Source: Escherichia phage LPEK22
Sequence record: OK283619.1
DNA length: 64,000 nt
Direction: 5' to 3' (one strand)
How positions within the stretch are numbered: the stretch's first letter is position 1; each line of letters opens with the position of its first letter. Position numbers and translations under genes: made by a program. The notes under the pieces are model-generated. The model was not told the DNA's origin and did no database searches. It was given only the letters and a program-made list of their open reading frames with translations. Positions 8,908 through 34,755 of this stretch are shown here, piece by piece.

Positions 8908-9525
8908 ATGGGCAAAATCTTTATACCTTCTCACTCAGAAGGTTGTCAAATCGCTGCAAAATTTCTACACAAACAAATGAATTGTGGTGCTGTGTTCGTA
9001 GAACCAAATTCATTCGATAATCGTGAATCCCCTGACGCCATCGGGTTCAGACCTGGGGGTTGTTCTATATTAATGGAAGTTAAAGTCTCCCGCGCCGACT
9101 TCCTGACAGACAAAAAGAAACCTCATCGCATGAATCCTTCCATAGGCATGGGAGCATATCGTTTCTATGTTTGCCCAGCAGATGTTATTAAAATTGAAGA
9201 CCTCCCTCCCAAGTGGGGTTTGTTGTACTTCACCCCTAGAAAATCTTTGAAGCCCGTTCACGTTCCGAATATGCAATATTCCTCTTTGTCTTCACCGGAA
9301 CATTATGCATCATATTTGTCTAAATCTTTGGACAAAAGAAGACCTACAGATATCCCTCATTATCTATTAGGGTACAAACAGATGCTGGAAGAATTCGCCC
9401 ACTTTGAACGCAATCAGGTTGCGGAACAAAATATTTTGTATGGGGCTTGGCGACAGCTTTGCATAGCTCAAAGTCGCGGGGTGGATTATAATGTGACAGA
9501 AGTGTTCCAGAGGCCAAATATCTAA
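8908..9525 (+). CDS. PD-(D/E)xK nuclease-like protein (MmcB-like fold suspected)
   Basis: Motif DAIGFRPGG...ILMEVKVSRADF resembles D...E-x-K nuclease core. Confidence 0.4.
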   Translation: MGKIFIPSHSEGCQIAAKFLHKQMNCGAVFVEPNSFDNRESPDAIGFRPGGCSILMEVKVSRADFLTDKKKPHRMNPSIGMGAYRFYVCPADVIKIEDLPPKWGLLYFTPRKSLKPVHVPNMQYSSLSSPEHYASYLSKSLDKRRPTDIPHYLLGYKQMLEEFAHFERNQVAEQNILYGAWRQLCIAQSRGVDYNVTEVFQRPNI

Positions 9526-10589
9526 TGAAATTCTTGGACGAACAATACATCAATTTTCTCGCCCCCCGACTTGATAAATTCAGCTGGGAACGTGTTGGCG
9601 CTGTCGCCAAATTTCGTTGCCCATTATGCGGGGATTCTAAGAAGAGTGCCAACAAGCGTCGTGGTCACTTCTTTTATGATCGTGATGACGATGTGTTTCG
9701 TTTCAAGTGCCACAACTGTAATGAAATGAGCGGTTGGGCGTTTGAATTCTGGTTGAAGAAGTTTGACGAGCGTCTGTATAATGAATACAACCTTGAAAAA
9801 TTCAGGATCATGGGGGATACCAGTTCCCGCCCGTTACAAAAACTCAAACCATTACAGCGCCTGACCCAGACAGCACGTATCGGTTCTCAGGTCGCCAAAC
9901 GGGATGAAGAGCACCTTGGGAATATGATACGCCTTGATCTTCTTGACCGTGATCATATCGCCCGTCGTTATGTTGAAGGCAGGGGAATGCCGGAGAGCAC
10001 GTTATCTTTGTTGTATTACAGCAGAAATTTTCGTCAAGATCTTCTGAGTTTTGAAACGGATGTTGAGAAGCAAAAGAAGATACCCGAAGATGAGCGGCTG
10101 GTAATCCCATTCTGGACCCAAGACGGGCGCATGAAGATAGTTCAGGGGCGCGCATTCGGCGATAACCTTCCTGATGGGGTATTACGGTATGCCACTGTCA
10201 AGCCTAAGAACGAAGACACTAAAATCTACGGGGAAGAGCGCATCATTTGGAACAAAACAAAGTTGGTAGTAGAAGGTCCAATTGATAGCTTGTTTCTACC
10301 TAATTGTCTTGCGACTGCCGATGCCGACTTATTAAGTGCTAAGGGAGACATCTATATCCCCGATAACCAATACAGGAACAAACAAGTTTGTGACGGTATA
10401 CAGAAGATGATAGACAGCGGAGTCAAAGTCGTTCTGTTTCCACCGGAAATACCGTGGAAGGATATCAATGATATGGTTCGCCCCGACAAGGGAAATATCC
10501 CGATACGTGATCTGCTTCAGATCATAGCCAAGAACGTATATCAGGGACTGTCGGCGTCCTTACGATTTTCTGACTTGAGGAAGATATGA
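9525..10589 (+). CDS. DNA primase (T4 gp61-like): zinc ribbon plus Toprim domain
   Basis: N-terminal CPLCGDS...CHNC zinc ribbon, Toprim-like VVEGPIDSLFL, size 354 aa. Confidence 0.7.
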   Translation: MKFLDEQYINFLAPRLDKFSWERVGAVAKFRCPLCGDSKKSANKRRGHFFYDRDDDVFRFKCHNCNEMSGWAFEFWLKKFDERLYNEYNLEKFRIMGDTSSRPLQKLKPLQRLTQTARIGSQVAKRDEEHLGNMIRLDLLDRDHIARRYVEGRGMPESTLSLLYYSRNFRQDLLSFETDVEKQKKIPEDERLVIPFWTQDGRMKIVQGRAFGDNLPDGVLRYATVKPKNEDTKIYGEERIIWNKTKLVVEGPIDSLFLPNCLATADADLLSAKGDIYIPDNQYRNKQVCDGIQKMIDSGVKVVLFPPEIPWKDINDMVRPDKGNIPIRDLLQIIAKNVYQGLSASLRFSDLRKI

Positions 10590-10795
10590 TGGATTTGAAA
10601 GAACTGAATAGTATGGACGATGAAGAGATTCTTCGCGGGTATATGCAAGCCCGTGAAGGATATGTCCTATCTGGCTTAGAATCTAAGAGTTTCATCCATG
10701 GTTGGAGGAATGGAATGGTGGACTTCGGCGGTTGTCCTATCACTGAAGAACAAATGGATTTGGCTCGCCAGTATTTGAAAAAGAAGCCGACCTAA
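10586..10795 (+). CDS. hypothetical protein (69 aa)
   Basis: ATGA-coupled to primase gene. Confidence 0.4.
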   Translation: MMDLKELNSMDDEEILRGYMQAREGYVLSGLESKSFIHGWRNGMVDFGGCPITEEQMDLARQYLKKKPT

Positions 10796-10823
10796 AACTT
10801 TTTAACTCAAATTATTTCCCTTC

Positions 10824-10848
10824 AGGCCTCATTCTACGAGGCCTTTTA
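10824..10848 (+). terminator. rho-independent terminator
   Basis: AGGCCTC / GAGGCCT stem followed by TTTT. Confidence 0.6.
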
Positions 10849-10888
10849 AAATACTTCAAAAATAATTTAAAAATTTATTGAAAAAGAC

Positions 10889-10917
10889 TTTACTCTTCAA
10901 TAATCATGCACTATTAT
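10889..10917 (+). promoter_or_regulatory. sigma70-like promoter TTTAC-N18-TATTAT with AT-rich upstream element
   Basis: AT-rich tract 10850-10888, TTTAC, TATTAT; drives gene 10995. Confidence 0.5.
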
Positions 10918-10994
10918 AGTTCACATAGGGCGGTACACAACACCCCGCCGAATGAAAAGTGAAACGACCCAACTACATTATGAGGAATTACATC

Positions 10995-11483
10995 ATGGCT
11001 ACTACCAAAACTCTGATCACCAACGGCACCATCTCTTTTGAACTGAACACCGAAGTTGCAAAAGTTGAAATGTTCCGCATCGCTCAGGCAGCTGGCTTCA
11101 CTGGTGGCAAAACTTCCTTCATGAATCTGCTGAACGGCAAAGTGAAAGCGACCAACGGCTTCACCCTGGTAGAGCAGGTTGTCGTAGACAAAGCCGTGGT
11201 TGCCAAAACTGCTGACAAGGTTGGCATGCTGAAAGACCTGGGCCATGACATCCACGTTGTCGAAGCGAACACCGAAACTTACGGCACCATCGTAGTCGGC
11301 AAAGGCCGCATTCAGCTGAACCCGCTGAACAACGGAACCTTCTCCGTGATGGTATTCCCGAAAAAGGGTTATGACAACAGTGATATCGTGAAAGCGGCTG
11401 GTGGCGAAGCAAAAGCTCAGTACGTCAAAATGGGTAAACTGACCGCCAAAGACGTTCAGACCCTGGTAAGCAAACTGGCTTAA
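10995..11483 (+). CDS. hypothetical protein (163 aa), likely abundantly expressed
   Basis: Strong promoter with AT-rich upstream element, GAGGA SD, host-optimal codons (ctg, ggc, aaa, ccg), terminator immediately downstream. Confidence 0.55.
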   Translation: MATTKTLITNGTISFELNTEVAKVEMFRIAQAAGFTGGKTSFMNLLNGKVKATNGFTLVEQVVVDKAVVAKTADKVGMLKDLGHDIHVVEANTETYGTIVVGKGRIQLNPLNNGTFSVMVFPKKGYDNSDIVKAAGGEAKAQYVKMGKLTAKDVQTLVSKLA

Positions 11484-11489
11484 TCGAAA

Positions 11490-11518
11490 GGGGGGGGGGG
11501 GAAACTCCCCTCCTTATT
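11490..11518 (+). terminator. poly-G (12 nt) / CCCCTCC hairpin, terminator-like
   Basis: G12 tract, AAACT loop, CCCCTCC, then TTATTC. Confidence 0.45.
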
Positions 11519-11542
11519 CAGATTTTTGGTAGGAGATTCAAA

Positions 11543-11665
11543 ATGGACGAAGAAGTTCTGTATTGCCCGCATTGTGGTTCGGAAATGGAATTTGAAGACG
11601 GTGATTGCCCGCATTGCGGTGAGCACATGGACTCCTGGAAAGATAGTGAAGGAGACGACGAATGA
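11543..11665 (+). CDS. small zinc-ribbon protein (40 aa, MDEEVLYCPHCGSEMEFEDGDCPHCGEH...), not in ORF track
   Basis: Two CPHCG motifs; AGGAGA SD 6 nt upstream; ATGA overlap with next ORF. Confidence 0.4.
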   Translation: MDEEVLYCPHCGSEMEFEDGDCPHCGEHMDSWKDSEGDDE

Positions 11666-11859
11666 CCGCATACGAAATGTGCATCAACAACATCGCATTC
11701 ACTTTGTTCAACCGCAACCCGAACATGGTGAACTCAAGCCCCCCGAGCGCATTCGATTTCTCCCTCGGGCTGGCAGTGGGGTTCTGTAAGGACGCTCAGG
11801 AAGTGGTGATGGACATCGCCGCTGCCGTCGCTAAACTCCAGAGGGAGGAAGCAGCATGA
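11662..11859 (+). CDS. hypothetical protein (65 aa)
   Basis: ATGA-coupled chain. Confidence 0.35.
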   Translation: MTAYEMCINNIAFTLFNRNPNMVNSSPPSAFDFSLGLAVGFCKDAQEVVMDIAAAVAKLQREEAA

Positions 11860-12044
11860 GCCGGGCAGTCATTCAAGCCTCTTCAGGCGCTCTATGGGTT
11901 GCCGACCGAATTCCCAACGCGCACTTTCCTCAGTTCCAAGAGGAACTGGAACAAGCGATGTTGAAAATATTTGAAAAATATGGGTATGATTCCGAAGTTA
12001 GGACTTCCTTCAAAGAAATCATGCCTGTCGTCGTAGTCAGATAA
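11856..12044 (+). CDS. hypothetical protein (62 aa)
   Basis: ATGA-coupled chain. Confidence 0.35.
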   Translation: MSRAVIQASSGALWVADRIPNAHFPQFQEELEQAMLKIFEKYGYDSEVRTSFKEIMPVVVVR

Positions 12045-34448: not shown

Positions 34449-34755
34449 TATTGCAGGGGGAGGAGACTCCCCCGTTAATTACAAAATCATCGACCCTGGT
34501 TCTGATCAGTTAGCAATAATCGAAATAACGGAAGGCAAATTCCGTGGCGTTCAATTTCGTATAGGGAAAGTGGGTGTCCATTTAGATAATGGAGAGCCTC
34601 GGTTATCCTTTACAACAGATATATTGAAGAAACCATGGCGTTTGTTATTTGTTAATTTGAAAGAAAATGACTTGTTCACTGTGGTGTCTGGGGATATCTT
34701 AGTTGATCTGATACAGCAAAATGCTCAGGATTACAACAAAATTTTGGTGGGGTAG
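34426..34755 (+). CDS. hypothetical protein (109 aa) between uvsX and helicase gene
   Basis: ORF. Confidence 0.45.
   Translation: MSSKQPSNIAGGGDSPVNYKIIDPGSDQLAIIEITEGKFRGVQFRIGKVGVHLDNGEPRLSFTTDILKKPWRLLFVNLKENDLFTVVSGDILVDLIQQNAQDYNKILVG

Follow-up and report, generated by a model that had tools for sequence, protein, structure and literature searches.

A G12 tract behind a codon-optimised gene of Escherichia phage LPEK22 as the probable slippage-prone arm of a conserved tetraloop hairpin

Escherichia phage LPEK22 (sequence record OK283619.1) carries an uninterrupted run of twelve G residues (G12) at positions 11490–11501 of the 64,000-nucleotide (nt) stretch analysed here, hereafter called the window. 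This tract probably forms the 5′ side of a conserved, GC-rich hairpin with a tetraloop that closes a gene predicted to be very highly expressed (10995–11483), and would as such be an ordinary slippage-prone repeat. Across the family Ackermannviridae the structure is conserved as an RNA hairpin with covariation, the pure G run is derived from an interrupted run, and its length is polymorphic between isolates. We further infer that the hairpin functions as a terminator or stabiliser, that slippage is the mechanism of the length changes, and that the modal length of the tract in the stock is truly twelve. The window corresponds to a Kuttervirus (Vi1/CBA120-like) Salmonella phage of this family close to the SeB/BSP101/moki/SeHz-1 group, with 98–99.5% identity to that group over 24 kb.

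The G12 tract and the homopolymers of the window

The stop codon TAA of gene 10995–11483 (11481–11483) is followed by the spacer TCGAAA (11484–11489) and then by the tract, whose first G is the seventh nucleotide past the stop. On its 3′ side come AAACT (11502–11506), CCCCTCC (11507–11513), TTATTCAGATTTTTGG, a Shine-Dalgarno (SD) sequence and the next start codon, ATG at 11543, which 41 nt separate from the tract. An earlier note on this DNA had described the same arrangement, which the sequence matches exactly, and had called homopolymers of such length rare, a judgement borne out by a genome that strongly avoids them. G12 is the sole homopolymer longer than 6 nt in the window, all remaining runs being 6 nt or shorter, and it is an extreme outlier against the real run-length distribution of this genome. 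Dinucleotide shuffles yield an expected 0.07 matches to a G10 pattern per window, against the three overlapping matches seen (reached in 1 of 100 shuffles), and a run of at least 12 of any base is present in 10 of 200 shuffles. Runs of at least 7 nt average 24.5 ± 4.7 in such shuffles (minimum 14), against the single one observed, G12 itself.

The same avoidance extends over the whole window, where 17 runs of at least 6 nt are found against 82.5 expected from dinucleotide shuffles. Coding constraints alone would not, in our view, lead one to expect so strong a depletion, and selection against slippage may lie behind it.

A hairpin conserved across the Ackermannviridae

The strand facing the tract in the window (CUCCCCUCCUU, 11505–11515) consists of 11 consecutive pyrimidines, so that 11 of the 12 Gs can pair as G-C or G·U and the twelfth falls in the loop. 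The predicted fold of the G12 allele has an 11-bp stem with seven G-C and four G·U pairs and a GAAA loop, and for the 60-nt region the folding energy is −25.8 kcal/mol, with z = −2.6 relative to shuffles. The predicted energy of the local hairpin falls from −10.8 kcal/mol for G6 to −15.0 for G8 and −20.1 for G12, with a plateau at n ≥ 12, and the predicted stem lengthens from 6–7 bp to 11 bp at G12, absorbing 5 nt of the U-rich tail.

A hairpin stands immediately behind the homologous gene in Kuttervirus, Agtrevirus, Limestonevirus, Taipeivirus, Miltonvirus, Nezavisimistyvirus and the Vibrio members of the family. It is conserved in at least seven genera and was present in every genus examined (Table 1). 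In a trimmed alignment of eight distinct hairpins, 100% of the cells are paired and double compensatory changes occur at three of the six pairs; the covariation score of 0.565, compared with 0.193 in shuffles (none of 500 reach it), collapses when the partners are slid, and is to be read as coming from an alignment trimmed by hand to the stem and so biased towards structure. Independent minimum free energy (MFE) folds place the hairpin at the same position in seven distant phages, UUUU or UUU stands directly past the stem in IME250 and in Det7-type relatives, and record OR122688 annotates the homologous site as a terminator. The suggestion of the earlier note that the tract can fold as a G/C hairpin terminator is thus upheld by the conservation, the compensatory stem changes and this annotation, with the qualification that the U tract is mediocre.

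Table 1. Forms of the hairpin behind the homologous gene in related phages (5′ arm, loop, 3′ arm)
Phage	Hairpin
Marshall, Vi01, vB_SenM-AKM_ssTn	GGGGAG-GCAA-CUCCCC
SKML-39, maane, allotria, Klebsiella phage May	G-GGGGAG-GAAA-CUCCCC
0507-KN2-1, IME250	GGGGGAG-GAAA-CUCCCCC
AV101	GGGGAG-ACAA-CUCCCC
Serratia phages Kevin and 3M	CCGGGG-G(C/A)AA-CCCCGG
Erwinia phage phiEa2809	GCGGGG-UUCG-CCCCGC
Vibrio phage K452	GAGGGGG-UUCG-CCCCCUC
Vibrio phage 1.244.A	CGGGGGC-AACC-GCCCCCG
Vibrio phage VAP7	GAGCCC-UUAAUU-GGGCUC then UUUCUU

Structures of this type are common in the window, which holds 13 hairpins with a GC-rich stem and a GNRA or UUCG loop. Several of them stand immediately behind long open reading frames (ORFs), and roughly half have a good T tract. 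The GNRA/UUCG hairpin is the standard gene-end element of this phage, as in T4-type phages. The copy at 34456 (GGGGGAG-GAGA-CTCCCCC) comes close to the ancestral form of the G12 hairpin. An Rfam 15 scan of 10700–11800 (E up to 10) gave sub-threshold matches only, the best overlapping one being Clostridiales-2 with 18.6 bits against a gathering score of 58.6.

The 3′ arm and tail (11507–11516) read CCUCCUUA, the same letters as the anti-Shine-Dalgarno sequence with which E. coli 16S rRNA ends, and the ancestral 5′ arm holds an SD-like GGAGG. In read-through transcripts CUCCU could also pair with the downstream SD AGGAG (11531–11535). The resemblance of the hairpin arms to 16S and SD sequences is probably a coincidence, a by-product of the G/A-rich stem.

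Origin and length variation of the pure G run

In its usual state the 5′ arm is interrupted, with four to six Gs followed by A and GG, and most relatives read GGGGAGG or GGGGGAGG at the position of G12. In the clade of the window the A of the arm has changed to G, by which the pair with U11506 is kept as G·U and the arm becomes an uninterrupted G run. The run is G6 in BSP101, Se-B and ps4 and, judged by record span, in some eight more records (about eleven in total), G7 in moki, G8 in SeHz-1 and Liang dang 541, and G12 in the window alone.

A sister lineage (GG32/Det7, with the loop AAACC) has taken a similar course. PhiSH19 and pertopsoe retain G6AGG, FrontPhageNews has a pure G9, GG32 has G6 and Det7 has G5, with many further G5 and G6 records by record span. 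The G9 of FrontPhageNews (MW021754.1, position ~341–349 of its locus in our set, L042) is the second-longest allele found and arose from G6AGG by an independent A-to-G change. Pure runs are confined to these two sublineages, with an independent A-to-G change in each, and vary in length, whereas interrupted arms vary little.

Within collinear blocks the tract is the lone indel, both over 21.2 kb against ps4 (98.5% identical) and over 15.6 kb against SeHz-1 (99.5%); one further gap, a single base at 2321, belongs to another block of the ps4 alignment, which is more divergent. The earlier note had suggested that tract length may vary between virions and had proposed checking related isolates; between isolates, the alleles G6, G7, G8 and G12 in the clade of the window and G5, G6 and G9 in the sister lineage, at the only indel in 15–21 kb, do show variability in length. 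It had overlooked that the run was born by the loss of an interrupting A and that the pyrimidine 3′ strand pairs with nearly all of the extra Gs. A pattern scan of IMG/VR retrieved six loci only, all copies of GenBank-type genomes, a metagenome pattern scan gave no match, and a literature search combining Kuttervirus and homopolymer found nothing.

Proposed function and alternative explanations

According to the favoured explanation, gene 10995–11483 would form a monocistronic, early-type and very highly expressed unit whose mRNA is closed at its 3′ end by the hairpin, most likely a leaky intrinsic terminator that also caps the 3′ end against 3′-to-5′ exonucleases. A promoter consensus scan detected no promoter-like site between the hairpin and 11543, nor before the next three small genes; having no promoter of their own, these genes depend on read-through, so the hairpin must be leaky. 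It would then keep the upstream mRNA in high excess over the small promoter-less genes downstream, and its chief role may be the protection of this abundant mRNA against 3′ exonucleases. As to its history, an ancestral arm GGGG(G)AG, with a GNRA loop and paired with CUCCCC, would have undergone the A-to-G change in the SeB/BSP101/moki clade, after which slippage of DNA polymerase would have altered the length of the pure run to G6, G7 and G8 in the relatives and G12 here; the expansion would be structurally tolerated since the opposite strand supplies 11 pyrimidines.

Several observations weigh against this explanation, in addition to the trimming bias of the covariation alignment. The U tract is wholly absent in Serratia phage Kevin and phiEa2809. 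In the window, the U content of the tail is 5 of 8 nt in the 6-bp register (UCCUUAUU) and 3 of 8 in the 11-bp register (AUUCAGAU), and after the 11-bp stem of the G12 register there remains AUUCAGAUUUUU, a poor U tract. This makes true termination uncertain, and the hairpin may only stabilise or process RNA. A terminator consensus scan called the site in BSP101 (G6) and left it uncalled in the window and in Marshall, and a search of the literature found no Ackermannviridae transcriptome or 3′-end mapping. With regard to the tract itself, the window is the only genome with more than nine Gs at the site. No independent assembly of the same phage that could confirm the length was found, and exact-protein look-ups returned nothing for the 162-aa protein and 11 already-known NCBI contigs for its 40-aa and 65-aa neighbours.

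These last points bear on the possibility, raised already in the earlier note, of an artefact, in which the hairpin is real and the true tract is shorter (about 6–8 Gs), the number 12 resulting from a miscall, consensus polishing or the collapse of heterogeneous reads. Several sequencing platforms are known to perform poorly on long G/C homopolymers. G12 is unique among about 15 clade genomes, the others having G6–G8; SeHz-1, the nearest relative over the region (99.5% identical), has G8, and GenBank marks the records of SeHz-1 and Liang dang 541 as UNVERIFIED. On the other hand, no other homopolymer in ~21 kb differs from the relatives, and the assembly is not generally error-prone at runs of up to 6 nt. 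This lone-indel result cuts both ways, as it would be produced by a truly hypermutable site as well as by a site of sequencing failure, and since the other runs are all 6 nt or shorter, it is hardly informative on a 12-mer. The perfect conservation of the flanks speaks against a contig-end poly-G artefact of two-colour chemistry. Moreover, lengths of 5, 6, 7, 8 and 9 in independent records of two lineages exceed the usual ±1 miscall and point to real variability at the site. Because the differences of 3–6 nt among such records are larger than typical miscalls, we consider real slippage the main cause of the length differences, and an artefactual G12 appears rather unlikely.

A more far-reaching alternative is that the tract is a non-coding contingency locus or "terminator rheostat", which arose twice in Kuttervirus and whose selected length tunes termination, read-through or the half-life of the upstream mRNA. 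Its targets would be the zinc-ribbon protein encoded immediately downstream, two small ORFs and possibly the endolysin, and its outcome a heritable but reversible heterogeneity of expression among phage subpopulations. The almost two-fold difference in predicted stability between G6 and G12, the progressive absorption of the U tail into the stem, the lack of a promoter-like site before 11543 and the twofold independent origin of pure runs are all consistent with such a role; the retention of one homopolymer in a genome that otherwise purges them could be meaningful, and homopolymer contingency loci have recently been described in phages, T2 and T4 among them (PMC12633550). However, the interrupted, stable arm has been retained in the majority of the family, and the majority of the clade has G6, its shortest pure allele, while the gene set past the hairpin differs between lineages, leaving no conserved regulatory target. 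In addition, known contingency loci act via frameshifts or promoter spacing, which is inapplicable here, and neutral slippage accounts for all the data. We regard selected length tuning as improbable.

That G12/C12 acts at the DNA level, as a G-quadruplex, a replication pause site or a recombination hotspot, is very improbable: a recombination patch does end within ~100 nt upstream of the tract, and homology with most Kutterviruses breaks ~35 nt downstream, placing the hairpin at a mosaic boundary, but relatives with an interrupted arm share that boundary, which is thus independent of the homopolymer, and the conserved pairing is of RNA type (G·U pairs, GNRA or UUCG loops), indicating an RNA function. 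A canonical three-tetrad intramolecular G-quadruplex was rejected, as it needs four G3 runs with loops (at least 15 nt), and here there are 12 Gs with no further G3 within 25 nt on the same strand.

The upstream transcription unit

Gene 10995–11483 is its own transcription unit, flanked by hairpins on both sides (Table 2). The upstream hairpin is conserved in Vi01 and IME250 and insulates the unit from the preceding gene, 10586–10795. The putative promoter is preceded by an A/T-rich, UP-like stretch (~10853–10888), and CTTTAC(T/G)-N17-TAT(T/A)(A/T)T also occurs upstream of the homologous gene in Vi01, IME250, phiEa2809 and Serratia 3M, which is consistent with the promoter function we propose from the consensus match. 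The stem-loop of the 5′ untranslated region (UTR), whose GGGCGG...CCGCC motif recurs in Vi01, IME250 and phiEa2809, might stabilise the mRNA. This promoter architecture, together with the 5′-proximal stem-loop GGCGG...CCGCC, is common to Kuttervirus, Taipeivirus, Nezavisimistyvirus and Miltonvirus.

High expression of the gene, assumed in the earlier note, is well supported in silico by the conserved candidate promoter, the 5′ stem-loop, the SD sequence and codon usage. Its frequency of optimal codons (Fop, E. coli-type optimal codons), computed for the ORF from the upstream in-frame ATG at 10980, is 0.83 and ranks first among 95 ORFs (mean 0.49, standard deviation 0.08).

Table 2. Features in and around the G12 hairpin of the window
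Feature	Position	Strand	Description and basis
Canonical terminator hairpin	10824–10847	+	AGGCCTC-ATTCTAC-GAGGCCT + TTT; sequence
Putative sigma-70-type promoter	10889–10917	+	−35 TTTACT, 17-nt spacer, −10 TATTAT; consensus scan
5′-UTR stem-loop	10924–10954	+	GGCGG 10929–10933 pairs with CCGCC 10945–10949; MFE fold
Highly codon-optimised gene	10995–11483	+	162 aa, phrog_3764, function unknown; SD GAGGA 10982–10986
Recombination patch	11042–11384	+	GG32-type in a SeHz-1/SeB-type backbone; substitution mapping
Outer weak helix, 5′ side (AAUC GAA)	11482–11488	+	pairs with 11517–11519 and 11521–11524; MFE and centroid fold
G12 run	11490–11501	+	hairpin 5′ arm and first loop base in the GAAA register; sequence, fold
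Loop AAA	11502–11504	+	with G11501 forms a GAAA (GNRA) tetraloop
3′ arm	11505–11515	+	core CTCCCC 11505–11510 + TCCTT; 11-nt all-pyrimidine strand
U-rich tail ATTCAGATTTTT	11516–11527	+	mediocre U tract, partly taken into the outer helix
SD and first downstream gene	11531–11665	+	SD AGGAG 11531–11535; gene 11543–11665, 40-aa CxxC...CxxC zinc ribbon
Other GNRA/UUCG hairpins	2357, 7573, 12914, 16248, 25984, 34456, 41388	+	
Other GNRA/UUCG hairpins	44390, 52631, 57534, 61360, 63521	−	

The gene itself is a mosaic. All 26 substitutions relative to SeHz-1 in 9000–12000 fall inside the patch 11042–11384, nearly all at third codon positions and with only two amino-acid changes. Over the 285 nt available the patch matches GG32 at 100% identity, and its identity to FrontPhageNews is 99.6%. 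The hairpin past it is still of SeB type, which places the crossover between 11385 and ~11474, less than 100 nt from the G tract.

Downstream genes and related records

Nucleotide homology with most Kutterviruses ends ~20 nt past the hairpin (~35 nt past the tract; window 11536–11545). The SeB clade has the 40-aa zinc-ribbon gene, which Marshall, Det7 and allotria lack, and Klebsiella phage 0507-KN2-1 has a similar gene start. The hairpin marks a mosaic boundary, and the gene next to it differs between lineages. A minus-strand ORF across the tract (11480–11671, ending ...PPPPFD) was rejected as spurious, being antisense to the conserved zinc-ribbon gene.

Two records with other host names also matched the Kuttervirus locus. 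MN871475.1, "Pseudomonas phage Pa-sanjiao", shows 97% identity over the full 1.1-kb query, and OR844944.1, "Enterococcus phage Efm 3-10" (a 38.5-kb record), shows 92% identity over the 67% of the query covered. Both look like host mislabelling or contamination in public records.

Implications

The tract is the one place where near-identical Kuttervirus assemblies disagree in length, which calls for caution in strain typing and in phylogenies based on single-nucleotide polymorphisms and indels. It also indicates where the early/middle transcription unit that is probably expressed most strongly in the 64-kb stretch ends, and the family-wide protein of unknown function encoded by this unit is worth study itself. 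More generally, the locus exemplifies in nature how the loss of an interrupting base through a single transition can make a stable hairpin arm slippage-prone, with an all-pyrimidine partner strand buffering the structural effect. If tract length changed read-through, the idea of the phage contingency locus would extend from coding frameshifts to terminators, and if that length were in fact a selected setting, the dosage of the most codon-optimised early protein would shift relative to the promoter-less genes downstream.

Comparison with known systems

C(UUCG)G hairpins were reportedly first seen in T4 mRNA by Tuerk et al. in 1988. Stable tetraloop hairpins have been described at gene ends in T4-type phages (PMC4371310). 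The LPEK22 hairpin resembles these structures and intrinsic terminators in its GC-rich GNRA/UUCG stem a few nt after the stop of a strongly expressed gene, in the U-rich stretch that follows and in its covariation. It differs from them in its interrupted U tract (UCCUUAUUCAGAUUUUU), in the four G·U pairs of the G12 stem and in having a pure homopolymer as one arm, which is unusual, and it is known here from sequence and folding.

Length-variable homopolymers are likewise known from phages. In a preprint that used a threshold of 6 nt, homopolymers of at least 6 nt showed detectable indels in populations of T2, T4 and other phages (PMC12633550), and the polyG tracts of 7–11 in Fletchervirus receptor-binding genes are described there as hypermutable (Sorensen et al. 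2021, as cited in PMC12633550). Like these, the present tract is a phage homopolymer (of G, in the range of 7–12 nt) whose length differs between isolates, presumably through polymerase slippage. Unlike them, since they lie in ORFs and switch genes on or off by frameshift, G12 is non-coding and part of a hairpin, so that its length can at most modulate RNA structure. It thus shares with contingency loci a slippable length and polymorphism among close relatives, and lies neither in an ORF nor in promoter spacing. The likeness to homopolymer errors of assembly consists in a single long G run that differs from all relatives at the sole site where the assemblies disagree; what sets the tract apart from such errors is that the lengths on record range from 5 to 12 nt over two lineages and that no other homopolymer is affected.
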